This document shows, piece by piece, positions 1 through 14,479 of a DNA stretch of 14,479 nucleotides. Source of the DNA: a virus; the UHGV virus genome UHGV-0177056; one strand, 5' to 3'. The position numbers were made by a program, and so were the translations under genes. The notes beneath the pieces were generated by a model. That model saw only the letters and a program-made list of their open reading frames with translations. It was not told the origin of the DNA and made no database searches. Each line of letters starts with the position of its first letter. Within the stretch, counting starts at the first letter, position 1.

Positions 1-49
1 TGGTTATTGCTGATTAGCTAACAGCACACGCCCCGCCAAAACGAGGCGC

Positions 50-697
50 TTATGCTGATTTCTTGTTTACAGGCTTAGTTTCTTGCTCCGGTGTGACGGG
101 AACGCGATCACCTGGTGTTCCAGCACAGAAAATGGCTTTGGCGCGGCGCAAAATCTCTTTGTCATTTTCCTCATCGCCAGCTAATGCCATGCAAACAGCG
201 TCTTTAAGCGATTGCCTGATGTTCAGGCTTTGAATGGCCTTTCTTTGCTCCTCAAGTTCGCTATCGGCTTGCTTAGTTTGCCTGGTGGGTTGCTGTAGGC
301 GTTCCAAGATTCCTTTAATGCCCATATCGCATATTGCACTTATCAACTGTTCCTTATCTTCTGTGGACGCTCTTTTCAATAACTCGTTAACTAGCTCGTT
401 TGTAATATCGGGAGAAGGCTGCGCTGTTTGATTTGATAGAGAACTTTCTTTGGCGATGGGTTCCTCACCGTAAGCGAGCCAATTTAAGCTCACTTGTTCT
501 TTATCTGAGATAAGGCAAGCTATTTTAAAAGAAGGCTCTGTTCCTTTATGAATGTAGTTGTTTAAGGTTGAAGGGGGGATTCCCCAATCACTCGCAGCAG
601 TTCTGACACTACGGTTACCTATCAGCTTTACTAAACGCTCTCTGAAACTTTCTTTTCCCCGGTCGACAAAAGAAAAAGCATCATCATTTCTAGTCAT
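50..697 (-). CDS. Phage CI-type HTH repressor (occupies the position of the Mu c repressor but with a CI-like N-terminal HTH)
   Basis: 215-aa ORF reading leftward from the operator region. N-terminal segment (SFRERLVKLIGNRSVRTAASDWGIPPSTLNNYIHKGTEP) looks like a phage CI repressor helix-turn-helix. RBS GAGGAAAG about 6 nt upstream of the ATG on the minus strand. Divergent from ner/A/B as in Mu-like phages. Confidence 0.7.
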   Translation of the reverse strand: MTRNDDAFSFVDRGKESFRERLVKLIGNRSVRTAASDWGIPPSTLNNYIHKGTEPSFKIACLISDKEQVSLNWLAYGEEPIAKESSLSNQTAQPSPDITNELVNELLKRASTEDKEQLISAICDMGIKGILERLQQPTRQTKQADSELEEQRKAIQSLNIRQSLKDAVCMALAGDEENDKEILRRAKAIFCAGTPGDRVPVTPEQETKPVNKKSA

Positions 698-879
698 TTT
701 TTCTTTCCTCTATAACTTATTGATTTTAATTACAAAAACCATATAAAGACCAAAAGCAAAAAGAAAATACAAAGAAAGGGCTATTTTTGCTTTACATGAG
801 CTATATATGGATCAATACTTATATCCGAAGGGATAACACGGCGGTGTTATCCGCACGGATAACTTTTAAGGGTAACCTA
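698..879. promoter_or_regulatory. Divergent early regulatory region between repressor and ner (putative operators and promoters)
   Basis: 182-bp AT-rich intergenic region between divergent genes. Contains an A-tract (aaaagcaaaaagaaaatacaaagaaa), a TTTACA -35-like hexamer at 791-796, an IHF-like site ATCAATACTTAT around 811-822, and clustered GGATAAC half-sites at 822-863. Confidence 0.5.
822..863. promoter_or_regulatory. Cluster of GGATAAC inverted and direct half-sites (candidate repressor/Ner operator)
   Basis: Perfect inverted repeat GGATAACAC-GGCG-GTGTTATCC at 831-852, a further GGATAAC at 857-863, and TATCC-GAAG-GGATA at 822-835, all immediately upstream of the ner start. Confidence 0.5.
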
Positions 880-1116
880 ATGATGGTTAGAAATGAAGTA
901 ATGAACAAAGACTGGCACCGCGAGTACATCGTTGCCGCTGTGCACACCAAAGGTTTTACATTGCGTGAACTTTCTGAACGCGCTGGTCTAAAAAAAGACT
1001 CTTTAAAAAATGCACTGTATCGCTCATGCCCTAAATATGAACGCATCATAGCCGATGCTATTGGTGTGGAACCTGCGGAGATCTGGCCAAGCCGGTATGC
1101 CAGTAAGGCGGCGTAA
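880..1116 (+). CDS. ner: Ner-like DNA-binding regulator
   Basis: Translation from ATG 880 (MMVRNEVMNKDWHREYIVAAVHTKGF...EIWPSRYASKAA) matches the Mu Ner / Nlp pattern (DWHR...GLKK...LSNAL...IIA.A....P..IWPSRY). The track ORF starts at 787, but that start would lie across the operator repeats; 880 has an AAGGG RBS-like sequence about 8 nt upstream. Confidence 0.8.
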   Translation: MMVRNEVMNKDWHREYIVAAVHTKGFTLRELSERAGLKKDSLKNALYRSCPKYERIIADAIGVEPAEIWPSRYASKAA

Positions 1117-3158
1117 TGTTTTATTCAGCCAATGAGCTGGCCGGTCTTCCTGGTTTGCCCGGTACAGTTCAGGGGGTGCGCTGGACGCTCAATCGGATCA
1201 CAGAGACGCACCCGGAATGGAAGCGCAAGCGTGAAGGCACCAAAGCATTCGAGTATCACATCGACTGCCTGCCCGCTGAAGCGCAGAAAGTTTTACGTAA
1301 GCGCCTGACCCATCAGGTCCTGGAAGATACGCAACTGCCCGCCGTGGTTGAGCAGAAGGCAGTTAAAAACGTCGCCGTTCGCGATGAACTGGAGGTGATG
1401 GTCAAATGCCCGGAACTGGCATTACGCGAAGTCCAGGCACTGACTGACAAGCAAAAGGCCATCGCTGATGCGCGGATATTGCTGGCTACTGAAGTGCATA
1501 AACTGCGTGAATACGCCGGAATGACAAGGAAGGCCGCGTTAAAGCACATCGTTGATGGTGTGCGCATGGGGGCGTTACCTGACCGCATTATCGAAGCAGC
1601 TAATACTGCAAATGCACGTCAGGGAAAGCGAACCGGTGTCAGCACAGGCAGCCTGGATAGTTGGTACTCCAGCTGGGTGATGGCGCGCGGTGATGCCAAT
1701 CAGTTACTGGCGTTACTGGCTCCCGGTCATCATAAGGGAACACCGTGGGAGCAGGTCTGGTGGTTGAGCGATTTCTTTATGTTCTATCGCTCATGGAAGC
1801 GCCCGACCGTTGAATATGCGTATCGCGAGTTTTCAGCCTGGTGGCATGAAAAACACGCGAACGATGCGGGAATGCTGGCGGCACTGCCTTCAGTTCACGC
1901 AGTAAGACGGGTGTTAAGCAGCGTCCCGGTGATTGTTAAAGAGCGTTTCCGCTCCACAGGTTCAGCCTGGCGTTCGCTCAATCCCTTTGTGCGGCGCGAG
2001 TGGACATCATTACCGGTTAATGCGGTATGGGTCGGGGATGGTCACTGTATGAAAATGACCGCGTTTAACCCCCTGACCGGCAATATTTTCCGGCCAGAAG
2101 TGACGCTGGTTATGGATGCAGGACAACGCTTTATTGTGGGCTGGTCACTGTCCCTGTCGGAGAACGTGATAGCCGTTGCTGATGCGTTACGTTACGGCAT
2201 GGCACAGCACGGGATACCGCTGATTTATTACTCCGATAACGGGGGCGGCGAAAAAAACCTGGTGCTTGATGCCGATATTACCGGGATTCTGCCCCGTCTG
2301 GGTGTGGAACATCACACGGGGATACCAGGTAACCCGCAGGGGCGCGGGGTGATTGAAAGGGTTAACAAGGAAATACCCAAAGACGTGGCCCTGAGTTTCC
2401 AAACGTACTGCGCAAGGGATGCAGACAAGGAAACCGTAATGATGCAGCAACGGATTATGCAGTCAGCCATTAAGGCCACCCACAAAGGGAAAGAGCTGAC
2501 AAAACGGCAGGTTAAGGCGAGGGATGAAATCCCTACCTTTGAGCAACTGATGGCAGCCATAGAGCTGGAGGTCAGACGCTATAACAACCGGCCACACAGC
2601 AGCCTTCCTCGCAAAGAGGATGGCGAGCATTACAGCCCGGCAGCGTATCGCCGGAAACTGATAAAAGAGCAGAATGTTGAAATTGATTTCCTGTCGCCGG
2701 AAGAACTGCATGAAATGTTCAGGCCGGAAGTGACGCGCAAAACATTTCGCGGGGAAATTCAGTTATTCAACAATATTTATTACTCATATGATCTGGCCGC
2801 AGAGCACGGGAATGAAGTCAGGGTCAGTTACGATATTCATGATGCAAACAGCGTCATTGTCCGGCGGGCTGATGGCTCTTATATCTGCGATGCCATCTGG
2901 AACGGTAACAAGGTTGATGCCTTCGCTAAACCAGTTATCGAACAAAAACTGGAGAAACGCGTCAAGGGCCGCATTGCACGGGCCACGCAGAAAATCGAAG
3001 AGGCTAAACGCGAGCTTACCCCGGCCATTACGCAGAAGCCTGACTTTAATCTGGGATATGGACTGGAACGCCTGGAGAAAAAGGAAAAAGAAGAACTTTA
3101 TTTATTCGCATCTGAACGCGAACGCAATTTAAAGAAAAACGGCACAAACAACCGTTAA
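1116..3158 (+). CDS. Mu-type transposase (MuA-like DDE transposase)
   Basis: 680-aa ORF directly after ner with TAATG stop/start overlap. N-terminus (ELAGLPGLPGT..GVRW) resembles the MuA DNA-binding domain; size and position match MuA. Acidic residues in VWVGDGH, YYSDNGG and GVIERVNKE are consistent with a DDE core. Confidence 0.85.
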   Translation: MFYSANELAGLPGLPGTVQGVRWTLNRITETHPEWKRKREGTKAFEYHIDCLPAEAQKVLRKRLTHQVLEDTQLPAVVEQKAVKNVAVRDELEVMVKCPELALREVQALTDKQKAIADARILLATEVHKLREYAGMTRKAALKHIVDGVRMGALPDRIIEAANTANARQGKRTGVSTGSLDSWYSSWVMARGDANQLLALLAPGHHKGTPWEQVWWLSDFFMFYRSWKRPTVEYAYREFSAWWHEKHANDAGMLAALPSVHAVRRVLSSVPVIVKERFRSTGSAWRSLNPFVRREWTSLPVNAVWVGDGHCMKMTAFNPLTGNIFRPEVTLVMDAGQRFIVGWSLSLSENVIAVADALRYGMAQHGIPLIYYSDNGGGEKNLVLDADITGILPRLGVEHHTGIPGNPQGRGVIERVNKEIPKDVALSFQTYCARDADKETVMMQQRIMQSAIKATHKGKELTKRQVKARDEIPTFEQLMAAIELEVRRYNNRPHSSLPRKEDGEHYSPAAYRRKLIKEQNVEIDFLSPEELHEMFRPEVTRKTFRGEIQLFNNIYYSYDLAAEHGNEVRVSYDIHDANSVIVRRADGSYICDAIWNGNKVDAFAKPVIEQKLEKRVKGRIARATQKIEEAKRELTPAITQKPDFNLGYGLERLEKKEKEELYLFASERERNLKKNGTNNR

Positions 3159-3176
3159 TTTAAAAGGTATTTAATT

Positions 3177-4070
3177 ATGAGTTTAATTACGCAATTAAAT
3201 GACGTAATGGCCCGTCGCGGCTATACGCAAACCCACGTCGCCCGTGCTATTGGTCGTAGCAGCGCCGTTATCAACCAGTATTTACAGGGTAAATATCAGG
3301 GCGATATGGCTGATATTGAAGAACGCATTTCTGCCTTTGTGACCCGTGAGCGGGAAAAGGAAAACAGCCGCCGTATTAAAGCGAAATTTGTTGCCACCGG
3401 TATGGCTGCCAAAGGACTGGAGGTGTTGGCCTATGCTCACCTGGAATGTGAAATCTGCGTACTGTATGGCGCGGCAGGTCTTGGCAAAACAATGATTCTG
3501 CGTGAATACGCCGCCAGAAACCGGGATGCGGTCCTGATTGAAGCCGACCCGGGCTATACAGCCAGAACACTGCTTGAGGAGCTGTGCCGCCAGCTGGGGG
3601 TAAAAGTTCGCGGCAATATCCACGAACTGATTGATGCATGTGTGCGAGAACTGCGTGATTCCGGTCGCCTGCTGATGGTGGACGAGGCTGAACTGCTCCC
3701 CTATCGCGCACTGGAGGTTCTGCGCCGTCTGCATGACAAAGCGGGTATCGGGATTGTCCTGGCGGGTATGCCACGCCTTCTGATTAACCTCAAGGGACGT
3801 CGCGGTGAGTTCGCCCAGTTATACAGCCGTGTGGCGCTGGCGCTTAACCTGGGCGATACGCTGTCGCAGGAAGATTTTAACCAGATAGCTACCGGGCTGA
3901 TGCCGGAAGCAGCAGAACCGGAAATCAGCGAGGCGCTCTACGCACGCTCACTGGGTAATGCCCGCCGCCTGTTCAAACTGGCTCGCGGTGTGTACCGGAT
4001 TTGTGATATCAGCGATGCACCGGTCAGTGTGCAGGCCATTGATAAATTCGCAGAAATGTTAATTCACTGA
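3177..4070 (+). CDS. MuB-like transposition ATPase (AAA+ target-DNA activator)
   Basis: 297-aa ORF after the transposase. N-terminal HTH-like segment, Walker A GAAGLGKT, Walker B LLMVDEAE. Position and length match Mu B. Confidence 0.85.
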   Translation: MSLITQLNDVMARRGYTQTHVARAIGRSSAVINQYLQGKYQGDMADIEERISAFVTREREKENSRRIKAKFVATGMAAKGLEVLAYAHLECEICVLYGAAGLGKTMILREYAARNRDAVLIEADPGYTARTLLEELCRQLGVKVRGNIHELIDACVRELRDSGRLLMVDEAELLPYRALEVLRRLHDKAGIGIVLAGMPRLLINLKGRRGEFAQLYSRVALALNLGDTLSQEDFNQIATGLMPEAAEPEISEALYARSLGNARRLFKLARGVYRICDISDAPVSVQAIDKFAEMLIH

Positions 4071-4309
4071 TGGAGAACAAGATGATGGACAAGCAGACCA
4101 TTAACGCCGTCCGTTCCCGTGCCCGTGTGGCCATCCACACCACCGGCGGTCGCGTAACTGGGCAACATCACCGTTTACCTGTGGTTTATGCCTGCCCGCC
4201 CGTGGGCGGCCCTGTATGGCCGGTAACGGAAATCATCCAGACATTCAGCGGCCTGCGCCGCGTGGTGAAAACGTCCTGTATCGACGGCTGCACCGTCGTA
4301 TGGCAATAA
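4070..4309 (+). CDS. Hypothetical small protein (79 aa), early accessory region
   Basis: Only ORF covering this interval; TGATG stop/start overlap with the MuB-like gene. Gly/Pro/Val-rich translation, no recognisable motif. Confidence 0.35.
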   Translation: MENKMMDKQTINAVRSRARVAIHTTGGRVTGQHHRLPVVYACPPVGGPVWPVTEIIQTFSGLRRVVKTSCIDGCTVVWQ

Positions 4310-4321
4310 GAGGAAATCAGA

Positions 4322-4537
4322 ATGGCGGTTAAGTTAGAAGTAATTATCTATACCGATGAAAAAGGCTGTGTTTTAACCCAGACCACGGGGAGTTATTCGA
4401 AGGACGGAGCTTCCGAAAAGGAGTTTCAGGTGGCAACAAGATTACATGATGCTATCAAGGAAACGCTCAGAAATGACTATAACGGCGTGAATCTTTTTTC
4501 TGAAAATGTTGCGCCTCGCGCACATAACACACATTAA
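4322..4537 (+). CDS. Hypothetical small protein (71 aa)
   Basis: Strong RBS AAGAGGAAA 6 nt upstream of the ATG. Same strand and spacing as neighbouring genes. Confidence 0.55.
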   Translation: MAVKLEVIIYTDEKGCVLTQTTGSYSKDGASEKEFQVATRLHDAIKETLRNDYNGVNLFSENVAPRAHNTH

Positions 4538-4566
4538 TCTGTAAATATCACTGAGGTAATTTAATT

Positions 4567-5211
4567 ATGACGACTGAAAATAAAGTTAAGCAATATACAA
4601 AAAATAAAGTGCAGGAAGGCTACTGGGTTGATGCCCGTGGTGTGATGACGCCTGAAAGTCTTATCAAAGATATTGACCGCGACCGTGAGCAGCTGGTCGG
4701 TGAGCTTGTGGAGATGGTGATTGCTGCCTCTGCCTCACTGCGTGAACTGAAACTGCGTGCGTTTGGTGATATTCAGGCATTTATTGACCTGTCGGCGGAG
4801 AAATACGGCGCTGTGAAAGGCGGTAAAAAAGGGAATATCACACTTTACAGCTTTGACGGGCGTTACAAGATTCAGCGCGCCATGCAGGACCGTATCGCGC
4901 TTGATGAACGCATTCAGACCGCGAAGGCACTGATTGATGACTGTCTGGCTGACTGGACGGAAGGAGCGCGCCCTGAAATTAAAGCCATCATCAGTGAAGC
5001 ATTCAGCACGGACAAGGAAGGCAACATTAACACCGGGCGCGTTCTGGCTCTGCGTCGTCTCGATATTACGGAGGAACGCTGGGATAACGCCATGAAACTG
5101 ATTGGTGAAGCCGTCCAGGTAATTGGCAGCAAAAGCTATATCCGCGTGTATGAGCGCGTCGGTGATTCTGCTGAATACCGCGCAATCCCGCTTGATATTG
5201 CAGGGGTTTAA
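4567..5211 (+). CDS. DUF3164-like protein typical of Mu-like phage accessory regions
   Basis: 214-aa ORF with GAGGT RBS. Size and position in a Mu-like early region fit the DUF3164 family; the family assignment is from memory, not a search. Confidence 0.6.
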   Translation: MTTENKVKQYTKNKVQEGYWVDARGVMTPESLIKDIDRDREQLVGELVEMVIAASASLRELKLRAFGDIQAFIDLSAEKYGAVKGGKKGNITLYSFDGRYKIQRAMQDRIALDERIQTAKALIDDCLADWTEGARPEIKAIISEAFSTDKEGNINTGRVLALRRLDITEERWDNAMKLIGEAVQVIGSKSYIRVYERVGDSAEYRAIPLDIAGV

Positions 5212-5212
5212 C

Positions 5213-5446
5213 ATGCATCAGGATATCAAAGAGTACAGGGCCGGGAACCGTTGCGCAGCGTATTCGCTGGGCGCGTCCAGAGCAGAACAACGCGGCGATT
5301 ATGCCGAAGCTGAAAAACTGTGGCGTAAGGCAGCACAAAGCCCGTGTAGTACCCTGCGCCGCATCTGGGCGGAACACCGGGCAGAGTTCTGTGCCAATGC
5401 TCACCTGAAAAGATGGAAGCCGCCTCATGAACGCGAAACGCTTTAA
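5213..5446 (+). CDS. Small ANR-like regulator (78 aa)
   Basis: ATG at 5213 lies 2 nt after the upstream stop (5209-5211), so it is preferred over the track start at 5123, which would overlap the previous gene by 89 nt. Translation (RAEQRGDYAEAEKLWRKAA...RAEFCA) resembles ANR-family small regulators. Confidence 0.5.
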   Translation: MHQDIKEYRAGNRCAAYSLGASRAEQRGDYAEAEKLWRKAAQSPCSTLRRIWAEHRAEFCANAHLKRWKPPHERETL

Positions 5447-5618
5447 TCAGCTATATCCGCCAGGGACTCGCTTCATGCACATTGCACATCGGGCAGTGCG
5501 TGGTGGTCGGGTGGTAAAAACTGTTGCACCTGCCAGAGATTTTAAATGTGGTTGTGTGGTTGAAATTAATGTCGAGCCTTATTTCGTTAAAGTCGAAACA
5601 CTGAAAGCACCGCATTAA
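5427..5618 (+). CDS. Hypothetical small basic protein (63 aa)
   Basis: Start overlaps the end of the previous gene, same strand; no recognisable domain. Confidence 0.4.
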   Translation: MNAKRFNQLYPPGTRFMHIAHRAVRGGRVVKTVAPARDFKCGCVVEINVEPYFVKVETLKAPH

Positions 5619-5647
5619 TTTAATTTGTTTTTAATTGTTATTTAAAA

Positions 5648-5681
5648 CAGGCGTAAACCCGCAGGGGCTGGCTTACGCCTG
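5648..5681 (-). terminator. Putative intrinsic terminator between convergent genes
   Basis: Perfect 9-bp stem CAGGCGTAA (5648-5656) / TTACGCCTG (5673-5681) with a GC-rich loop. On the minus-strand transcript the hairpin is followed by UUUUAAAU, so it would terminate the 5759-5977 gene; it may also act on plus-strand read-through. Confidence 0.5.
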
Positions 5682-5758
5682 AATCTGAGGAAGTTTATTT
5701 ATGAATATTGCTAAGCAAAAAAAATTCGCCCGCGAAATTAATCTGACAATCGTTTGTT

Positions 5759-5977
5759 TTAATCGTCTTGCGACCAGTTCTCAATCGACAGCAGATGTTC
5801 ATCCAGCGCCGCAGCCAGAACGAACTCCCCACGTTCCTGAAGGCCGTGCTGGAAGTTGCGTAATTCAGAATCCAGGGCGCTGAGGTTCAGACAGCCATTT
5901 TCTGAAAGCTGTTTAACCAGAAAGCTCCACGCAGCTTTGTTAGCAGTAATTGCTGCCGCAATTTCATCATCAATCAT
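5759..5977 (-). CDS. Reverse-oriented small acidic protein (72 aa), function unknown
   Basis: Minus-strand ORF with strong RBS (AGGAG, 6-nt spacer) and the downstream hairpin terminator. About 14 acidic versus about 5 basic residues. Only the repressor shares this orientation in the window. Confidence 0.55.
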   Translation of the reverse strand: MIDDEIAAAITANKAAWSFLVKQLSENGCLNLSALDSELRNFQHGLQERGEFVLAAALDEHLLSIENWSQDD

Positions 5978-6065
5978 TTTTTAACTCCTGATTGGGTATG
6001 TTGGGGCAGCGATTATGACAAGTGTTTTGTGGTTATAAGTTGATCAAAAACAATGAGTTACAACC
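5978..6065. promoter_or_regulatory. Divergent intergenic region (candidate promoters for the 5759-5977 gene and the 6066 operon)
   Basis: 88-bp non-coding gap between divergently oriented ORFs; no consensus promoter hexamers could be assigned by eye. Confidence 0.3.
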
Positions 6066-6776
6066 ATGAAAGATAAATACATTGCCAAAATCAAAAAACT
6101 GTTACGCCTTGCCAGAGGAACATCAAGCCCGGAAGAAGCCGCTAACGCTATTGCAAAAGCCCAGGCTTATATGCGCCAGCATGGTATCAGCGAAAACGAC
6201 GCGGAATTGTTCGACATTCAGGAAGCTGCCAGCGCGGGTGCGCCGAGTGACGCCAGTACGCCGCCGCGTTATATGCACATCCTGTGTGACCTGGTCTGTA
6301 AAGCCTTCGGTGTCGAGTGTTACATCTCCGGCGAATACCGGGCTTCTGGTTCACTCAAACGTTACGTGCGTTTTTATGGTCCTGACAGCCGCCCGGAAAT
6401 CGCGGCTTACGCGTTTGATGTGCTTTCCCGTCAGATGATGGCAGAGCGCAAGAAATATCAGGATAAACACTGCAAACGTTGTGGTCCGTCCACGCGGGTA
6501 GCCCGTGGCGACCAGTTCTGCGAAGGCTGGGTCTTTGGTGCCCGTGATGTCATTGCGGTGTATGACGTCTCCCCGGAAGAAAAAAGCCGCCTTGAGCTTT
6601 ACAGAAAGAACCTGCACAGCACTAAGGGACTGCGCGACGGGGATATGCGCACAGCTAAAGCGTGTCGGGGTGCAGAGTTTGCCGCTACTGCCGGTTTTAT
6701 CGCCGGGAAGAACGCCAGGCTGCATCAGGGGGTTAATGGTCAGAGCAACAGACCGCTGGCACTGGGGAGGGTGTAA
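6066..6776 (+). CDS. DUF2786-like phage protein
   Basis: N-terminus KIKKLLRLARGTSSPEEAANAIAKAQAYMRQHGI matches the DUF2786 signature (KI.KLLALA..T.NE.EA..A..KAQELM..H) common in prophages. 236 aa. Confidence 0.7.
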   Translation: MKDKYIAKIKKLLRLARGTSSPEEAANAIAKAQAYMRQHGISENDAELFDIQEAASAGAPSDASTPPRYMHILCDLVCKAFGVECYISGEYRASGSLKRYVRFYGPDSRPEIAAYAFDVLSRQMMAERKKYQDKHCKRCGPSTRVARGDQFCEGWVFGARDVIAVYDVSPEEKSRLELYRKNLHSTKGLRDGDMRTAKACRGAEFAATAGFIAGKNARLHQGVNGQSNRPLALGRV

Positions 6777-6778
6777 CG

Positions 6779-7006
6779 ATGGCTTTTAAACTTCTTAGTG
6801 TTACCGAAGCAATATACCAGCCGCCCGGAGAACGCCACGAATACAGGATGAATGACGGTAGCGCGGTGGTTGAGTTCCCCGGATATCCGGGGGCTTCCCG
6901 GTGGCGGTTCTATGACAGTGTGGGACGTCGGATTATTAAAAGAACCGTGCACAACAATATGAAGGCTGCCGTAGAACGTCATAAGAGAAGGTTTAACTGC
7001 AAATGA
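6779..7006 (+). CDS. Hypothetical protein (75 aa)
   Basis: GGAGGG RBS 8 nt upstream; start 2 nt after the upstream stop (translational coupling). Confidence 0.55.
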   Translation: MAFKLLSVTEAIYQPPGERHEYRMNDGSAVVEFPGYPGASRWRFYDSVGRRIIKRTVHNNMKAAVERHKRRFNCK

Positions 7007-7233
7007 AAATTGAATTTTATGACCATGGGGTCACCGCAACTATCACTATTTCTTGTTGGTTCTGGGAGTTCCACCGTTACTTCAGAGTTGTAGATGCTGC
7101 GCTGTTTGTTGCACCGGGAGCGTTACATCACAGTGGAATCGGTATTGTTATGAACACTGTCATCAGCGGTAAAACGGTCCCGATGTTGCGGGCGTTTAAA
7201 GTGGCAAAACAGGAGGCTGGCAATGGTCATTGA
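7003..7233 (+). CDS. Hypothetical protein (76 aa)
   Basis: ATGA start/stop overlap with the upstream gene; hydrophobic stretches; weak RBS. Confidence 0.4.
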   Translation: MKIEFYDHGVTATITISCWFWEFHRYFRVVDAALFVAPGALHHSGIGIVMNTVISGKTVPMLRAFKVAKQEAGNGH

Positions 7234-7537
7234 TAAAACGATAACGATAGATGTAGCCATGAATACAGGTCTGGCGCTTATCGGTTATGGCTATATCACT
7301 TTTATGTCATTCAGGTGGTTGATTTCTTCGCTCTTTAAGCAGCGTGAAAAACATCGTTGTAAAGACAAGCGCGCGAAGGCGCTAAATGCGTTTAATGACG
7401 CTTTTGATATTGACCATATGCAACAGGGCGACCCCGCACGCGTAATTACCCGGGGAGATATCGTAATTCTTGTGTACCGGAATGAAAAAAATGAACAGGA
7501 GACAACCAGTGAGTCAGCAAACCAGAATAAGCGATAA
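7223..7537 (+). CDS. Hypothetical single-pass membrane protein (104 aa)
   Basis: Strong AGGAGG RBS 6 nt upstream. Hydrophobic segment GLALIGYGYITFMSFRWLISSLF followed by a basic stretch (KQREKHRCKDKRAK), suggesting N-out/C-in topology. Confidence 0.6.
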   Translation: MVIDKTITIDVAMNTGLALIGYGYITFMSFRWLISSLFKQREKHRCKDKRAKALNAFNDAFDIDHMQQGDPARVITRGDIVILVYRNEKNEQETTSESANQNKR

Positions 7538-7673
7538 GAGTCTGACCAGACTGATTGCCGATGCGGACAAGGTGCTGGAGCGGAACTCCCCCGTTGCCGA
7601 TGAGGAATGGTGGCAGGATTTCCGGGCTGCAATGCTGGAACTTCAGGAACGTCGTCGGGAGGTGTTGAAGTGA
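7509..7673 (+). CDS. Hypothetical small protein (54 aa, GTG start)
   Basis: GTG at 7509 preceded by GGAG with a 7-nt spacer. The track ORF begins at TTG 7470, but the RBS supports 7509. Overlaps the upstream gene by 29 nt. Confidence 0.45.
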   Translation: MSQQTRISDKSLTRLIADADKVLERNSPVADEEWWQDFRAAMLELQERRREVLK

Positions 7674-7939
7674 GTGAATTAAAGTGTCGAATTAATGGCA
7701 ATCAGATAGAACCGTGTGCGGTACTGGCAAAAGCACTCGAATATGGAAATCCAGCCTTTAAGAGTAAAGGCATATTTATCCCGGAACGCGTGAATATAAA
7801 CACCGGCGAGCCAGGCTTAGACATTGCTCAAATTCACTCCGGCCAATATGTCGGTCGTGGTGTTGCCATGTGTTTTTGCCCGTTCTGTGGTGAAAGTCTG
7901 AAAACATGGAAAAAGGAGGCAACCAGTGAGCGAGATTAA
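7670..7939 (+). CDS. Small Cys-containing protein, possible zinc ribbon (89 aa, GTG start)
   Basis: GTG at 7670 overlaps the upstream stop (GTGA) with GGGAGG upstream. Cys at residues 6 and 16 plus a C-terminal CFCPFC cluster. The track ORF starts at 7607, but that stretch is Gly/Ser-rich and overlaps the upstream gene. Confidence 0.5.
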   Translation: MSELKCRINGNQIEPCAVLAKALEYGNPAFKSKGIFIPERVNINTGEPGLDIAQIHSGQYVGRGVAMCFCPFCGESLKTWKKEATSERD

Positions 7940-8492
7940 CTATCAGGCACTGCGTGAGGTGGCAGAGGCCGCGAAGGGGGATACGACGTGGCAGAACCTA
8001 CAGGCTTTTCATGCTGCGGCTACGCCGGAGGTTGTGCAGGCGTTGCTGGATGAAAACGAAAGACTGTGTCGCGATCTGATAGCTCGTAATGGTGAGATTG
8101 AAGGGCTTCGGGAGTGGGCAGAAGAACTGGAGGCACGGGAGGTGGCTTTGCCAGTAGCGTCATGCATTGTTGAAGATGGATGCATGTGTGTTGATGGGTT
8201 CAGTGAGTATGTAGGTCACTCGCTATCTGATGGAATGCATGAGCTTTATGCTGCCCCGCCAGCGTCGGTAGTGCCGGAAGGACTAGTTAAAGCAGTGCGT
8301 TTCTATGAACAGGTATCGCTACACAGACCGGCGAACTGTCCGATGGTCTGGTTTTTAACGGCACCATTCATAAAAACTTTGAGCTGCGTCTGCCGGTCAT
8401 GCGTGATAACGGGCAGGCACTGGAAGAAACTGAAGAACGCTTTCAGACAGTGGACGGCTTCGCGGCGGATTATTACTACCGCTGTGCGGTAA
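7926..8492 (+). CDS. ead/Ea22-like protein, N-terminal region; C-terminal ~60 codons of the ORF are of doubtful coding nature
   Basis: GTG start with GGAGG RBS. N-terminus MSEINYQALREVAEAAKGDTTW resembles the lambdoid Ea22/ead family start (..QALREAAEKAT.GEW). After about 8300 the translation turns Cys/Arg-rich and non-protein-like, while the chaperone-like frame opens. Confidence 0.5.
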   Translation: MSEINYQALREVAEAAKGDTTWQNLQAFHAAATPEVVQALLDENERLCRDLIARNGEIEGLREWAEELEAREVALPVASCIVEDGCMCVDGFSEYVGHSLSDGMHELYAAPPASVVPEGLVKAVRFYEQVSLHRPANCPMVWFLTAPFIKTLSCVCRSCVITGRHWKKLKNAFRQWTASRRIITTAVR

Positions 8493-8689
8493 TGGCGGCA
8501 ACGCTGGTCCGTCTGGGGGATATTCCGCAGGAAGAACTGACGGCGGAGCTGTTGCACGACAACATGACGCCGGAAGATTTTAATATTCTGCTGGCATCAC
8601 GCAACGTCCTGAAGGTAAAGCGGAGCGGCGGGAATCCCGGCTCGCCGGACTCCGGCTCGCAGTCCTTATCCTCGGGCGCTACGGAATAA
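8309..8689 (+). pseudogene. Tail assembly chaperone-like reading frame lacking an N-terminal start (5'-truncated, or expressed from internal ATG 8399)
   Basis: Frame is open from 8309 with protein-like translation (LVFNGTIHKNFELRLPVMRDNGQALEE...LVRLGDIPQEELTAELLHDNMTPEDFNILLA), but no ATG/GTG/TTG occurs before 8399. Position immediately upstream of the tape measure is typical of a chaperone. Family resemblance is by pattern only. Confidence 0.45.
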
Positions 8690-8703
8690 CTGAAGAACAA
8701 ATC

Positions 8704-8862
8704 ATGACCATGAGCCGTCCCGAGCTGGACGGCTGGCTTGCCGCCGTTGACAGGCTGAACGGCGGCGGCTCAGGAAGAAAGGACACCTCACAGACCACCC
8801 GCCAGTCATTTAAATCCCTCAGAAAGAAACGCAGAAAAGGTAAACAGAAAAATGGCCGGTAA
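8704..8862 (+). CDS. Small ORF in the -1 frame relative to the chaperone-like gene (possible frameshift extension or independent small basic protein)
   Basis: The -1 frame is open from 8584 through 8862, overlapping the chaperone 3' end and the tape measure start. ATG at 8704; translation MTMSRPELDGWLAAVDRLNGG... with a Lys/Arg-rich C-terminus. This geometry matches chaperone long-form arrangements. Confidence 0.35.
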   Translation: MTMSRPELDGWLAAVDRLNGGGSGRKDTSQTTRQSFKSLRKKRRKGKQKNGR

Positions 8863-10246
8863 TTTCAAAGTTGGCATGACCCTGACTGCGAAGGACGAAG
8901 CCTCGCAGGTTCTGGAAAAGGGACAAAAACAGGTTATCAAAGCCACCGAAGGTGTAACAAAGGCAACCCGGAAGGCAGGCGCAGAGCAGACGCGTACCGG
9001 GCAGGAAAGCGTTAACAGCACGAAAAAGGCGGCAAAAGAGATACAGCGTGCCGCCCGTGCCCGGGAAACGCTCGGTATTCGTGCAGAACGCGAGATCCGG
9101 CGTGAAATTTATCAGACGGTTGCCAGCTATAACCGTCTGGCCCGCGCCGGTTTTGAATCTGCGCAGGAGCAGGAGCGCGCCATGCAGGCCACCCGGGAAA
9201 AAGCCCGGGCACTCAAGCGTGAACTGGATGGCGTCACTCAGGCTCAGATGAAGATGGCGAAAACGCCTGTTATCCCTGAACGGGGGCGTTTTGCCCGTGC
9301 GGCTGCATTTGGCGGGAATGCCGTGACAATAGGCGGCGGAATTATGGCAGGGGCCGCCATTATGACGCAACCAGTCAGAAATCAAATGAGTTATGAACGT
9401 CAGCTCAGCATGATGGCGAACACGGCGTTCAGTGATGGTGGTCTGGAAGGCAGGCAGTTTGGGCGTGAAAAGCTGAAAAACAGTATCCGCGCGGCGGTAA
9501 CGTATGGTGGCGGAACGAAAGAGGATGCAGCTGAAGCAATGAATGAGATGTTGGCCAGCGGCGCTTTTTCCTGGGATACCGCGAATAATCTCTTACCGCA
9601 GATTATGAAATTTGCTACTGCATCCGGCGCATCTCCACGCGATCTGGTCACTATGGCGGCCAAAGCTAAACAAACATTTGGACTGACAGATGACGACCTC
9701 CCGGCCATGTTTAATATGGCTGTCGCAGCAGGTAAAGCGGGTAATTTTGAGCTACGGGATATGGCGGAATATCTTGGACCTCAGATGGCGTTAGCTGGTA
9801 ACGCCGGAATGAAAGGACTGGATGGACTCCAGAAATTACTGGCATTTAATGAGGTCGCAGGGATTGCCGCAGGCAGCAGCAGTGAAGCAGGTAATAACGT
9901 TGTAAACCTGCTGGCCAAACTTTTCAGTAGTGAATCAGCAACAAGGGCGAAAAGCATCACGATTGATGGCAAAGGTATTGATCTACCTGGTACGTTGACC
10001 CGAGCTATGGAAAACGGCATTGATCCGATAGAAGCATTTTCACGCCTCACTGATAAAGTCACCGCGAACAACAAACAATATCAGGAGCTTCAGAAGCGTC
10101 TGGCAGCAACAAAAGACAAAGGCCAGCAGGACAAAATCCTAGAGTCTATGGCGAAAATTCTTGAGGGGTTCGGTGTTGGTGAGCTTGTTGGTGATATGCA
10201 GGCACTGAAGGCAATCCTGGCTTACTGCACCTTTAAATACCGTTAA
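8852..10246 (+). CDS. Tail tape measure protein (short, 464 aa)
   Basis: Coiled-coil-like Ala/Lys/Glu/Arg-rich N-terminus, Gly/Ala-rich hydrophobic segment (AAAFGGNAVTIGGGIMAGAAIM), and a core-like motif FELRDMAEYLGPQMALAGNAGMKGLDGLQKLLAFNEVAGIAAGSSSEAGNNVVNLLAKL. Position is upstream of the baseplate hub genes. Confidence 0.8.
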   Translation: MAGNFKVGMTLTAKDEASQVLEKGQKQVIKATEGVTKATRKAGAEQTRTGQESVNSTKKAAKEIQRAARARETLGIRAEREIRREIYQTVASYNRLARAGFESAQEQERAMQATREKARALKRELDGVTQAQMKMAKTPVIPERGRFARAAAFGGNAVTIGGGIMAGAAIMTQPVRNQMSYERQLSMMANTAFSDGGLEGRQFGREKLKNSIRAAVTYGGGTKEDAAEAMNEMLASGAFSWDTANNLLPQIMKFATASGASPRDLVTMAAKAKQTFGLTDDDLPAMFNMAVAAGKAGNFELRDMAEYLGPQMALAGNAGMKGLDGLQKLLAFNEVAGIAAGSSSEAGNNVVNLLAKLFSSESATRAKSITIDGKGIDLPGTLTRAMENGIDPIEAFSRLTDKVTANNKQYQELQKRLAATKDKGQQDKILESMAKILEGFGVGELVGDMQALKAILAYCTFKYR

Positions 10247-10250
10247 CAGC

Positions 10251-11102
10251 ATGATTAAAAAAGCCCAGACAGTGCGTGCCACACTGGTGAATACCCTGCT
10301 GTCGTTCAAAAGTGATTTTGTCTCCACTGTCGATAATATCGTGTCACTGGCAGGCGAACCCGGAAAATTTATCAATGGACTGGCAGAGGTGCTGGAAATC
10401 CACACATCAGATGTCGGGCAACCGGTGCCGGTTCTGCAACGTGTTGATTCTGCCACCCGGACCGGGTTGGCAGGAGAGACGACCGTCGCCAGTTCTGCGA
10501 CAGTGATGAACTGCTGGAATAAGGTCATCACTGATATGGATGAATTTGTTGCGCTGCCTGTTGCCCTGGTCAGTGGCGATAAAGTACCGGAGGTGGTACT
10601 TCCTGCGGATGCCTCGCCAGACGATGTGCAGGATGTGAAAGCAGTTTACGCAACACAGGCCGCATCTGAACTGGCCAGTGTTGCAATGGCGATACTGGTT
10701 GATGATGCGCAGTCAGAACAGCTTATACCGGCGGATATCGGGCGACTGGTCGGGGATGTGCGCACCCGCTTACAGGCTGCCATCACGCTGTTCCGTGAAC
10801 GCTATGAAGGCGAACGCGAACGGATAACCGAAACCGCATCACCGCTGGGGCTGATGTACCCGGAAATCATTCAGAGCATGAAAAACGTGGCGGCATCCGT
10901 GCAGGATGTCGGCCTGCTGGTTCTGTCACGCCGCCCACCGCTGATGCAGAAACAGGTGCAGGCGGACAGCTGTCTGCTGTTGCTGGCGTGGCAGTGGTAC
11001 GGTGATTACAGTCGTGCGGCAGAACTGCAACGTCTGAACCCGCAGCTGCGTGACCCGAACAACATAACCGCCGGGGTGGTCATTAATGCCTACGCAAAAT
11101 AA
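10251..11102 (+). CDS. Tail protein with C-terminal LysM/tail-protein-X-like domain (positional equivalent of Mu gp43/N)
   Basis: 283-aa ORF starting 4 nt after the tape measure stop. C-terminus (DSCLLLLAWQWYGDYSRAAELQRLNPQLRDPNNITAGVVINAY) matches the P2 gpX pattern D.L..I...YYG.......L..NP.L. Confidence 0.65.
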   Translation: MIKKAQTVRATLVNTLLSFKSDFVSTVDNIVSLAGEPGKFINGLAEVLEIHTSDVGQPVPVLQRVDSATRTGLAGETTVASSATVMNCWNKVITDMDEFVALPVALVSGDKVPEVVLPADASPDDVQDVKAVYATQAASELASVAMAILVDDAQSEQLIPADIGRLVGDVRTRLQAAITLFRERYEGERERITETASPLGLMYPEIIQSMKNVAASVQDVGLLVLSRRPPLMQKQVQADSCLLLLAWQWYGDYSRAAELQRLNPQLRDPNNITAGVVINAYAK

Positions 11103-12297
11103 CGAAGACAAAATCAGCCTGGTCATTGCCGGAAGGTCGCATTCTGACTGGAACAGTTATCGTATTGACAGCGATTTCCTGAAAGCTGCCGACGGCTGGC
11201 AGCTTCAGCTGGGGCTGCCTGAAAAGGTGTTCCCGGCGGATATCGTCCGGGGCGCACAAATCCGGTTGCAGGTGGGAGACGAAACGGTGCTCAGTGGGCG
11301 CATAGACAGCGTGCGCCGCAGTGTATCCCGTCAGAGCTGCACGCTGACCCTGTCCGGGCGTGATGATGCCGCCATCCTGGTGGACTGTGCCGCGCCAGTG
11401 TTCAGCGCCAACCAGCTGACGCTGGACGAGGTCATCGACAGGATTGTCAGACCGCTGGGGATACAGCGCATCCGTATTCAGGCGTCCGGTGTGTCACGTA
11501 ATGACAAAGTCGTTATTGAGCCGGGGATGCGTGCGTGGGATGCACTGGCCAAAGCTGCCGCCGGTCGCGGCTTATGGCCGTGGTTTGAGCCTGACGGGAC
11601 GCTGGTTGTGGGTGGCCCTGACTACACCACCACGCCGGTGGATACGCTGATTCTGAAGCTGAACGGCACCGGGAACAACGTGATGGAGCTGGACGATACC
11701 CGGTCCATTAACGGCTGTTTCTCCGAACTTACTGTGCTGGCCCAGAGCCACGCCCGCCGCGCAGACAGCAAGAAACAGGTGGCCGTGGTGCCGCTGGATA
11801 TCTGGAACGAGGACGGCAGCGTGCGCACATTGTCCGGGCAGGACAGCGGTAATACGGACAGTGGCCAGACAGGCATTCATAACATGAAAGCCGTTGCCAC
11901 CGACCCCACCGTGGATTATTACCGCCCGCAGATAATCACCCAGGGCGACACCAGCAATCTGGAGCAGGTGAACTGGCGCGCAAAAAAAATGATGAGTGAT
12001 GCCCGCCTGTCGGGGCTGGATATCGTCGCGCTGGTTGCAGGTCATCGCACGGCAGATGGTGTTCTGTGGCAGCCCGGCCAGCGGGTGCGGATTGTCAGCG
12101 AACTCCACGGCATTGATGCCATCTTTTTCCTGATGGGGCGTGAGTTCAGCGGAGGCCGAAACGGGCAGACAACCCGGCTCCGCTTTAAAGAGGACGGCGT
12201 GTGGATACCTGATGCCTTCCCGCGCGAGAAGAAACGCCATCACCGCAGGGGCAAAAAGAAAAAAGAGGTCGCCATTGTTAAGGTCTGGGAGAAATGA
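11086..12297 (+). CDS. Late control gene D-like tail protein (Mu gp44/P-like baseplate hub)
   Basis: 403-aa ORF; size, position after the tape measure and X-like protein, and overall pattern fit the gpD/gp44 family. Unusual Lys/Arg/His-rich C-terminal tail. Confidence 0.8.
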   Translation: MPTQNNEDKISLVIAGRSHSDWNSYRIDSDFLKAADGWQLQLGLPEKVFPADIVRGAQIRLQVGDETVLSGRIDSVRRSVSRQSCTLTLSGRDDAAILVDCAAPVFSANQLTLDEVIDRIVRPLGIQRIRIQASGVSRNDKVVIEPGMRAWDALAKAAAGRGLWPWFEPDGTLVVGGPDYTTTPVDTLILKLNGTGNNVMELDDTRSINGCFSELTVLAQSHARRADSKKQVAVVPLDIWNEDGSVRTLSGQDSGNTDSGQTGIHNMKAVATDPTVDYYRPQIITQGDTSNLEQVNWRAKKMMSDARLSGLDIVALVAGHRTADGVLWQPGQRVRIVSELHGIDAIFFLMGREFSGGRNGQTTRLRFKEDGVWIPDAFPREKKRHHRRGKKKKEVAIVKVWEK

Positions 12298-12947
12298 TGT
12301 GGGACAAAGTTAATCAGCGCGTACAGCAGGCACTGGCCGCCGTTCGCCAGGCATTCAGGGTGGTGACCGGTACGGTGGACAGTTCGACCAAAGTACAGCT
12401 GCTTCAGCTTAACGGGCTGGCAGGCGAACAGCTGGACGGTGCGGAGTATTTTCAGCATTACGGCCTCACCACATCCCCGCCGCCCGGCTCAATGGGTATT
12501 GCCGTTCCGCTGAACGGCAATACCTCTCATACTGTCGTGGTGGCCACAGAGCACGGCGCATATCGTCTGACGGAACTGAAACCCGGGGAAGTGGCCCTGT
12601 ATACCGATGAAGGCGCGAAAATCGTACTGAAGCGCGGACGGGTTATTGAAACCGAATGTGACGTTTATCGCGTGAAATGCAAACGCTACGAGGTTGAGGC
12701 AGAGGAGAACGCCACATTCACGACACCGTTACTGACAGCCAGTGACAGGCTGACGGTGGAAGGCAAAATCACCGGCAACGGTGGCATGGCCATCAGTGGG
12801 GGCAAGGGATACACTGCCACCTTTGAAGGCGATATCAACCATGTGGGTGGAGTGATTACCTCCGTTGACGTCACCATTAATGGCGTTAAAATCGGAACGC
12901 ACAAACATCCAACCCCACACGGCATGTCTGACACGCCGGTTAATTAA
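12294..12947 (+). CDS. Baseplate assembly protein V-like (Mu gp45-like spike)
   Basis: 217-aa ORF with ATGA overlap to the upstream gene. N-terminal OB-fold-like region and a Gly-rich beta-rich C-terminus (GKITGNGGMAISGG...INHVGGVITSVDVTINGVKIGTHKH) typical of gpV spike proteins. Confidence 0.8.
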   Translation: MMWDKVNQRVQQALAAVRQAFRVVTGTVDSSTKVQLLQLNGLAGEQLDGAEYFQHYGLTTSPPPGSMGIAVPLNGNTSHTVVVATEHGAYRLTELKPGEVALYTDEGAKIVLKRGRVIETECDVYRVKCKRYEVEAEENATFTTPLLTASDRLTVEGKITGNGGMAISGGKGYTATFEGDINHVGGVITSVDVTINGVKIGTHKHPTPHGMSDTPVN

Positions 12948-13000
12948 GTGCTGAACACCCTCACCTGATTCTGACCTGTCCATGCTGCCAGACTGGCGGC

Positions 13001-13339
13001 ATGGACCAGACGATTTCACCTGCAACCGGCGACTACGAACGCCGTCGGATTTATACCCTTCATAACGCGGTTTATCTGCGACTGGCGACGCCGCTTGGCA
13101 GTTACTGGGCGGATGCGTCGCTGGGGTCACGCCTGCACGAGCTGAAGCGGGAAAAAGACGTTTCCCGTGTTCATAAGCTTGCGGCGCAGTATGCCAGCCA
13201 GGCACTTCAGCCCCTGCTCGATGACGGGCGGGCAAAATCCATTACCGTTGACACAAAACCGGGGCAGCGCGGCTGGTTGTTGCTGTTAATCACCGTCACG
13301 GATAACGCGGGCACACCGCAGACGTTTGAACACCTGTGA
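13001..13339 (+). CDS. Mu gp46-like baseplate protein
   Basis: 112-aa ORF; GSRLHELKREKDVSRVHKLAAQYASQALQPLLDDGRAKSITVD...WLLLLITVTDNAGTPQTF fits the gp46 family pattern (SRLW.L.R.K.T...L....YA.EAL.WL.DDG.A..V.V......L.L.V....G....F). Confidence 0.75.
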   Translation: MDQTISPATGDYERRRIYTLHNAVYLRLATPLGSYWADASLGSRLHELKREKDVSRVHKLAAQYASQALQPLLDDGRAKSITVDTKPGQRGWLLLLITVTDNAGTPQTFEHL

Positions 13340-13349
13340 GGATTATGTA

Positions 13350-14429
13350 ATGCCGTTTCCTGTTCCGGGCGTTGCTGAAAACACAGAACGCCAGCTACGT
13401 GATATCGCTAACGCCCTGCCGGGCGAAACCATCGACACCGGCGCTGACAGCGATTACCGCATTCGTGCAAATGCCGTATCCGGCGTGGCGGACGGACTGT
13501 ATATGCATCAGGGGTGGATACTCCGTCAGGTGTTTCCTGATACGGCAGACCCTGAATATCTGGAGTTGCACTGCCGCACGCGCAATGTTTTTCGTAAAAA
13601 AGCAACGGCCTCATCCGGTCCGGCAGTGATTACCGGCACACCCGGTAAGACGCTGCCAGCCGGTGCGGAAATTCGTGGTGAAGGTGTCAGCGTGGCCACC
13701 GCAGCAGACTGCACCGTCGGTGATGAAGGCAGCGCAGAGGTGACGGTAAAAAGCACTGCCACGGGTGCACAGACGAATGCATCCACGACGCAGACGGCAA
13801 CGCTGGTCAGCCCACCTGAAGGCATCAACAGCACGGTGACGATTAAATCCCTGACCGGCGGAACGGACAGGGAAAGCGACGCCGACCTGCTGGCGCGTTA
13901 TCTGGATATTCTGCGCAGGCCGCCCGCTGGCGGTAATAAATATGATTACAAACGCTGGGCGCTGGAAGTGGATGGCGTTACGTCTGCGTATGTGGAGCCG
14001 TTGCGTCGTGGACTGGGGACGGTTGATGTGGCCATTACGTCAGCCAATGACCTCCCTTCGCAGGAACTGATTAATGCCGTGCTGGCACATATTGAGGAAG
14101 TCCGCCCGGTGACAGCGAAGGACACGATGGTGCTGGCCCCGACGAAAAAAGCCGTTGATTTCGTTGTCCGGGTAAAAACCAGTGGTCTTACTGTTGAACA
14201 GATAAAACCACAGATAACTGAAGTTATCACGGATTTTATGAACCGGCTGGAGCCGGGGCAGGAATTAATTATTTCACAACTGGAAACTCAGATTTCATTA
14301 ATTTCTGGCGTCAGTGACCGGCGAATTATTATGCCGTCAGATAATGTAAAAGCAGTTGTCAATGAATCCACATGGGAGTGGCTGCGTCCGGGGAGTATTG
14401 ATATCCAGCCATTTCCCCGGGAGAGTTAA
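13350..14429 (+). CDS. Baseplate J-like protein (Mu gp47-like)
   Basis: 360-aa ORF from ATG 13350 (GAGGA RBS, 7-nt spacer). The track start at 13326 would overlap the upstream gene. Size, position after gp46-like and sequence character fit baseplate J. Confidence 0.8.
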   Translation: MPFPVPGVAENTERQLRDIANALPGETIDTGADSDYRIRANAVSGVADGLYMHQGWILRQVFPDTADPEYLELHCRTRNVFRKKATASSGPAVITGTPGKTLPAGAEIRGEGVSVATAADCTVGDEGSAEVTVKSTATGAQTNASTTQTATLVSPPEGINSTVTIKSLTGGTDRESDADLLARYLDILRRPPAGGNKYDYKRWALEVDGVTSAYVEPLRRGLGTVDVAITSANDLPSQELINAVLAHIEEVRPVTAKDTMVLAPTKKAVDFVVRVKTSGLTVEQIKPQITEVITDFMNRLEPGQELIISQLETQISLISGVSDRRIIMPSDNVKAVVNESTWEWLRPGSIDIQPFPRES

Positions 14430-14432
14430 TAC

Positions 14433-14479
14433 ATGAATACGGTTGATTTATTTCGTGCCATGTTACCACCGGTCAGCTA
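14433..14479 (+). CDS. Start of gp48-like tail protein (DUF2313-like), truncated by window end
   Basis: ATG at 14433 with GGGAGAG RBS; translation MNTVDLFRAMLPPVS contains the LLPPVS-type N-terminal motif I associate with Mu gp48-like proteins. Only 15 codons visible. Confidence 0.5.
   Translation, partial: MNTVDLFRAMLPPVS

Follow-up and report, generated by a model that had tools for sequence, protein, structure and literature searches.

The locus considered here raises the question of why a reading frame that begins as an Ea22-like early gene overlaps, at its far end, with a frame that resembles a tail assembly chaperone and has no start codon. The overlap lies in a 14,479-nucleotide stretch of the virus genome UHGV-0177056 (the window). 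A preliminary description took it for the signature of a recombination breakpoint near 8300, at which the chaperone gene would have lost its 5' end together with everything upstream. The overlap of the two frames is indeed present (7926-8492 and 8309-8689), and the features that make it up are the following:

7926..8315, plus strand: ead/Ea22-like early gene, 5' 390 nt (codons 1-130 of 165); Pfam PF13935; left flank of deletion 1
8316..8492, plus strand: read-through tail of the Ea22 fusion ORF, out of frame, 58 codons and a stop; from translation
8309..8689, plus strand: start-less tail assembly chaperone remnant, residues 4-127 of the native 127; PHROG 508
8314..8315: junction 1 (deletion 1, 16,617 bp missing), TA common to both parental flanks; from the three-way alignment and BLAST segments 1-8315 and 8314-10225

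From its sequence, the element in the window can be identified as a transposable, Mu-like E. coli prophage. Its intact relative is the Mu-like prophage in eutC of E. coli O127:H6 strain E2348/69 (NC_011601.1, about 2,715,936-2,751,670), a region that served as the reference for the window alignment and is numbered here as L002. A literature search for a published description of this prophage gave nothing directly relevant. By BLAST, the whole window falls into three colinear blocks with 97.7-99.4% identity to the E2348/69 region: window 1-8315 corresponds to L002 8199-16512 (97.7%), window 8314-10225 to L002 33128-35039 (99.4%), and window 10222-14479 to L002 36408-40666 (98.8%). The window is thus the E2348/69 type of prophage minus two segments. 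The reference is complete, whereas the window lacks 16,617 bp between the 3' end of the Ea22-like gene and the start of the chaperone, and 1,372 bp between the 3' end of the tape measure gene and the 5' end of the DNA-circularization gene.

In E2348/69 the prophage comprises the repressor, a Ner-like HTH protein, the Mu transposase, an AAA ATPase, early genes, Mor, holins and endolysin. The order continues with terminase, DUF935 portal, gpT head protein, sheath, tube, chaperone, tape measure, DNA circularization and gp44-48-like baseplate proteins. The window shares this gene order, as well as the repressor, MuA, MuB, early, Ea22-like, chaperone, tape measure and baseplate genes. All the Mu-type late genes (Mor/C activators, gp29 portal, gpT head, sheath, tube, gp44-48 baseplate) are present in the intact relative, and only the gp44-48-like ones are left in the window (Pfam GpP-like, Phage_Mu_Gp45, GP46, Baseplate_J and Phage_Mu_Gp48). 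The proximal part of the element is preserved as follows:

50..4070: immunity/transposition module, intact (repressor, Ner-like HTH, MuA-like, MuB-like), lengths as in E2348/69
50-697, minus strand: repressor, 215 aa, intact, length as in E2348/69
1116-3158: MuA-like transposase, 680 aa, intact; Pfam HTH_Tnp_Mu_1 (PF02316) and Mu-transpos_C (PF09299), precomputed matches
3177-4070: MuB-like ATPase, 297 aa, intact; AAA_22, AAA_30 and TniB matches; AAA family ATPase in RefSeq

The 680 residues of the MuA-like protein equal the length of the RefSeq "Mu transposase C-terminal domain-containing protein" of E2348/69, and the gene for the MuB-like AAA+ ATPase lies directly downstream of the transposase gene.

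The breakpoint itself is defined by a three-way alignment of the window with L002 16466-16556 (left parent) and L002 33083-33173 (right parent). At junction 1 the left parent reads ...TATGAACAGGTA and continues with AAGTGTG, the right parent reads ...GGATGACGATTA and continues with TCGCTACACAG, and the window reads ...TATGAACAGGTATCGCTACACAG across the join. The same limits appear in unrelated genomes, in which the left homology stops at 8315 and the right homology begins at 8314-8320. When window 7900-8900 was compared by megablast with 5,426 complete E. coli genomes, 184 records matched, each over at most 59% of the query, and all tail-side matches in this collection begin at window 8314 or 8320. 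With window 7600-8330, four genomes of the E2348/69 lineage match at 99.9%, and their matches end at 8315. Both flanks sit in a single E2348/69 prophage, 16.6 kb apart and with 99.9% and 99.5% identity; as they derive from the same prophage, junction 1 is read as an internal deletion and not as a join between different phages.

Position 8314/8315 therefore most probably (about 93%) marks the place where 16,617 bp were deleted from within a Mu-like E. coli prophage at ydjO, a deletion deduced from a relative that is 97.7-99.4% identical and inserted at another site, not from the direct ancestor. Both the Ea22-like gene and the chaperone are full length in E2348/69 and in other genomes. The recombination junction of the preliminary description is borne out by the alignment and refined to a deletion within one prophage. 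Its breakpoint is real, with DNA homologies that end at 8315 and begin at 8314, but it lies at 8314/8315 and not at about 8300. The supposed loss of everything upstream of the chaperone corresponds to the 16,617 bp, but the chaperone itself has lost only three codons. The overlap of the 188-aa fusion ORF with the start-less frame is ordinary prophage decay.

The deleted interval (L002 16513-33127) holds 26 complete genes in the E2348/69 annotation. These are four small early genes (one of the gp16 family), Mor and one further small gene; two holins, a GH108 endolysin and two small genes; and a DUF1804 protein, a DNA methyltransferase and terL. They are followed by the DUF935 portal, head morphogenesis, virion morphogenesis, protease, virion structural and gpT major head proteins, by HI1506-related, gp436, DUF1834 and DUF2635 proteins, and by the tail sheath and the tail tube, the identity of the tube being confirmed by PHROG 185.

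Deletion 1 has brought codon 130 (of 165) of the Ea22-like gene next to nucleotide 9-11 of the chaperone gene. The resulting fusion ORF (7926-8492) has a GTG start and encodes 188 aa. Residues 2-96 match the Pfam family PF13935 (Ead_Ea22) above the gathering threshold (E=1.2e-15; 58.7 bits vs a cut-off of 27), and this domain lies wholly upstream of the breakpoint. Against the E2348/69 protein WP_001289972.1, 129 of the first 130 residues are identical and then the similarity ends, so the frame decays, as had been noticed at the outset, yet stays open to 8492. An Ea22-like protein does not normally end there: the full-length protein of E2348/69 has 165 aa and a C-terminus unlike that of the window. 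Because of deletion 1, the Ea22 frame continues out of frame for 58 codons, to 8492. This tail (8316-8492) is the chaperone gene read in the wrong frame, and it does not resemble the reference Ea22 C-terminus.

On the other side of the junction, the chaperone frame opens after the TGA at 8306-8308 and, as had been described, contains no ATG, GTG or TTG before the ATG at 8399. Residues 3-125 match PHROG 508, "tail assembly chaperone" (E=1.1e-39; profile positions 22-146 of 155), and the match includes residues upstream of the Met at 8399; a comparison of the frame with Pfam gave no family match. The remnant is identical at 124 of 126 positions (98%) to residues 2-127 of a 127-aa E2348/69 protein (L002 33120-33503). 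The intact reference gene starts ATGACGATTATCGCT (MTIIATQ), whereas the window frame reads TGIATQ. What is missing at the 5' end is only the first 8-10 nt (ATGACGAT plus the common TA), that is, codons M-T-I, and with them deletion 1 takes the start codon and the ribosome-binding context of the gene. No Shine-Dalgarno-like sequence precedes the ATG at 8399.

The family does not start at the Met of 8399 either, since its members, close and distant alike, begin within about 3 codons of window 8306. The close homolog is a 127-aa protein of E. coli OkiPb01701 with the same start position. The distant one (131 aa, 40% identity) belongs to Klebsiella phage ST405-OXA48phi1.1, in which it lies between a tail protein gene and the tape measure gene. 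In the GenBank phage collection only two chaperone homologs were found, both distant, and this collection contains no close relative of the tail region of the window. In the intact relative the chaperone is located between the PHROG 185 tail tube and the tape measure, the same order as in the Klebsiella phage, and the window has lost the tube gene that precedes it.

At window 8490-8494 (TAATG), the stop of the fusion ORF overlaps an ATG at 8492 that is in frame with the chaperone remnant. Owing to this accidental overlap, some gene callers predict a 65-aa ORF (8492-8689) and others a 96-aa ORF from 8399. A further frame covers the 3' end of the gene:

8584..8862, plus strand: -1 frame ORF over the chaperone 3' end, ATG at 8704, 52 aa; from frame analysis; PHROG 3114

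This ORF is intact, shares the final 105 nt of the chaperone gene and is presumably a frameshift extension of the chaperone; RefSeq annotates it separately, as a 52-aa hypothetical protein. Phage tail assembly chaperones such as lambda G/GT and relatives reportedly use a programmed -1 frameshift. The locus resembles lambda G/GT in the position of the chaperone between tube and tape measure (in the intact relative) and in the short -1 ORF that overlaps its 3' end. Unlike lambda G/GT, the overlap between the chaperone and the -1 ORF contains no canonical X XXY YYZ slippery heptamer, and the gene in the window lacks a start codon.

A second, smaller deletion follows downstream:

10222..10225: junction 2 (deletion 2, 1,372 bp missing), TTAC common to both parental flanks; from alignment and BLAST segments
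8852..10225, plus strand: tape measure gene, 5' part, about 458 of 757 codons; Pfam PhageMin_Tail; left flank of deletion 2
10226..11102, plus strand: DNA-circularization/baseplate hub gene (Mu gp43-like), 3' part; PHROG 184, positions 169-411 of 411

Junction 2 joins about codon 458 of 757 (tape measure) to about codon 157 of 449 (DNA circularization). The tape measure part covers profile positions 2-448 of 763 of PHROG 794, and the truncated ORF (8852-10246) encodes 464 aa, vs 757 aa for the intact protein. The remnant of the DNA-circularization gene is a 283-aa ORF (10251-11102) that begins with an internal ATG, as compared with 449 aa for the intact protein. Together the two deletions truncate four genes, with junction overlaps of 2 bp and 4 bp.

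The setting of the element in its host is given by the 84.8 kb parent contig (L003; ERZ27289098 k119_7697), which matches the window at 100% identity. On its left side the contig carries katE-cedA-ydjO, with 99.9% identity to E. coli K-12. The host homology stops at L003 1812, inside ydjO, and there the prophage left end TGTGGGGTAGTG begins, which reads the same in the window element and in E2348/69. This border, at 1812/1813 in the stretch L003 1250-1822, is located upstream of window position 1. The insertion sites differ, being ydjO for the window element and eutC for E2348/69. At ydjO, a prophage is absent from all 5,426 complete E. coli genomes, and as they offer no intact copy there the direct ancestor is missing. 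The right end of the element is on none of the contigs. In E2348/69 the prophage is bordered on both sides by the 7 nt ACACACT (L002 7929-7935 and 43669-43675), which would fit a 5-bp target duplication of the Mu type in eutC, the phase relative to the TG/CA ends being ambiguous. A truncated invertase-like pseudogene is located at the right end of the E2348/69 prophage.

Since the parental flanks of junction 1 share only 2 bp (TA), deletion 1 would have arisen by illegitimate, homology-independent recombination, either through replication slippage or through end-joining of a break, and an illegitimate origin is likewise presumed for deletion 2. Slippage and end-joining would be indistinguishable here, a 2-bp overlap being weak by itself and fairly frequent by chance. 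The resulting element would no longer be able to lyse the cell or to make particles. It retains an intact repressor, transposase A and ATPase B, and its remaining tail genes would be dead cargo. A promoter scan found no promoter-like site in window 7500-9000, and with Mor gone, transcription of the tail genes would depend entirely on read-through from the early operon.

Laboratory mini-Mu elements are engineered derivatives in which the left end, the repressor and the A and B genes are kept and most late genes are removed. The window element is similar in that it keeps the left end, repressor, A and B while most late genes are gone. It differs in that it is not engineered and still carries about 6 kb of useless tail and baseplate genes in the window. 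It is improbable that the doubly deleted element is a natural, still transposition-competent "mini-Mu", kept for superinfection immunity or mobilised by a co-resident Mu-like phage. If true, this would explain the presence of both identical scars in several samples; the intact early genes are the one observation that points to it.

Alternatively, junction 1 might be a natural module boundary of a mosaic phage, at which a lambdoid-type Ea22 early region meets a Mu-type tail module. Ea22-like genes are typical of lambdoid and P1/P7-like phages, the short matches of the left flank are to such phages and plasmids, and the early region includes patches of 88-92% identity at 4000-5000. However, both junction genes are truncated instead of being joined at gene boundaries, the product would be devoid of any head, lysis, sheath or tube genes, and the two flanks share one E2348/69 prophage at the spacing and identities given above. 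Such a boundary is refuted by the colinear intact relative and is decidedly unlikely.

The internal deletion was also followed across assemblies. Junction 1 was found only through an exact-protein look-up in ENA and Logan assemblies, which located the fusion protein (188 aa) on 11 contigs and the truncated tape measure protein (464 aa) on 12, in both cases as exact matches. The junction strings are also carried by contigs of ERZ27287483, ERZ27274202, ERZ19661572, ERR11507440 and ERR2619760, whose identity is no lower than 99.97%. Both junctions are found on contigs of ERZ27289098, ERZ27287483, ERZ27274202, ERR11507440 and ERR2619760, and junction 1 on ERZ19661572; the two co-occur on every contig long enough. 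The joint presence of the junctions in at least five samples or runs, with junction 1 alone in a sixth, argues that they are not assembly artefacts; as several of the ERZ assemblies may share a study, cohort or strain, this recurrence is a measure of reproducibility and not of independent origin.

An assembly chimera, with two parts of one intact prophage or of two wrongly joined, would fit a source that is a short-read metagenome assembly (MEGAHIT-style contig name) and a junction seen in none of the 5,426 complete genomes. Against this, the junction recurs in six samples or runs with at least 99.97% identity, under varying k values and in two pipelines (ENA k119/k141, Logan), and junction 2 always accompanies it. 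In addition, the flanks have only 2 bp in common and offer no repeat for a de Bruijn graph to collapse. The 2-bp overlap and the recovery by different assemblers and k values make a chimeric join very unlikely. Junction 2 is likewise absent from the 5,426 complete E. coli genomes, and exact 32-mer searches for junction 1 gave nothing in GTDB species representatives, IMG/VR or JGI metagenome contigs. The junction allele is uncatalogued but unremarkable in kind.

The chance that polarity is reversed, with the window ancestral and 16.6 kb gained by insertion in the E2348/69 lineage, is negligible: nothing specific favours it beyond the fact that the direct ancestor at ydjO was not observed. The 16.6 kb comprise, in canonical order, the late genes that a Mu-type phage cannot do without, and the long form alone has complete flanking genes, whose complete forms are conserved in more than 100 genomes and a distant Klebsiella phage.

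Prophage decay by internal deletion has familiar counterparts in the cryptic prophages of E. coli K-12, which are defective prophages formed in this way. Like these, the window element has lost lysis and morphogenesis genes, contains ORFs truncated at the scars and keeps its immunity module. Unlike these, it is of the transposable Mu type, not lambdoid or P4-type, its transposition genes are intact, and its decay is recent, the remaining DNA being at least 97.7% identical to the intact relative. The locus gives a clean and datable picture of a Mu-type prophage early in its decay: there are two deletions with little microhomology and, in the window, a possible additional frameshift of 1 nt, and the genes for immunity and transposition are still intact. 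Its main relevance is to annotation, and it raises no new biological question. The 188-aa "Ea22-like" protein is a fusion artefact, the 96-aa and 65-aa "hypothetical proteins" predicted here are chaperone remnants, and the 464-aa "tape measure" protein and the 283-aa ORF downstream of it are truncations; a pseudogene flag is called for in each case. For this E. coli strain, the sequences of the two junctions can also be used as lineage markers in metagenomes.

Three smaller features of the window remain to be mentioned. The window diverges from E2348/69 at 4000-5000, where the identity falls to 88-92% with nine 1-nt indels (indels at 4369-4440), the early region otherwise being 97-100% identical; this patch resembles a mosaic replacement in the neighbourhood of the small ORFs 4070-4309 and 4322-4537. 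At 13333, close to where the gp46-like gene ends, one nucleotide is missing (CCC to CC); this private deletion is present in the window and the parent contig L003 and not in contigs L004 and L008 or in E2348/69. As a result gp46 has 112 instead of 116 aa and its ATGA overlap with the baseplate J gene is lost, and the change could be either a real extra frameshift or an assembly error. Finally, two Logan contigs from unrelated runs (L008 and L009) both begin exactly at window 8006, inside the Ea22-like gene. This shared start suggests that the 5' part of the Ea22-like gene is repeated elsewhere in those genomes and breaks the assemblies, and it suggests Ea22-like genes of other prophages as the repeat copies.
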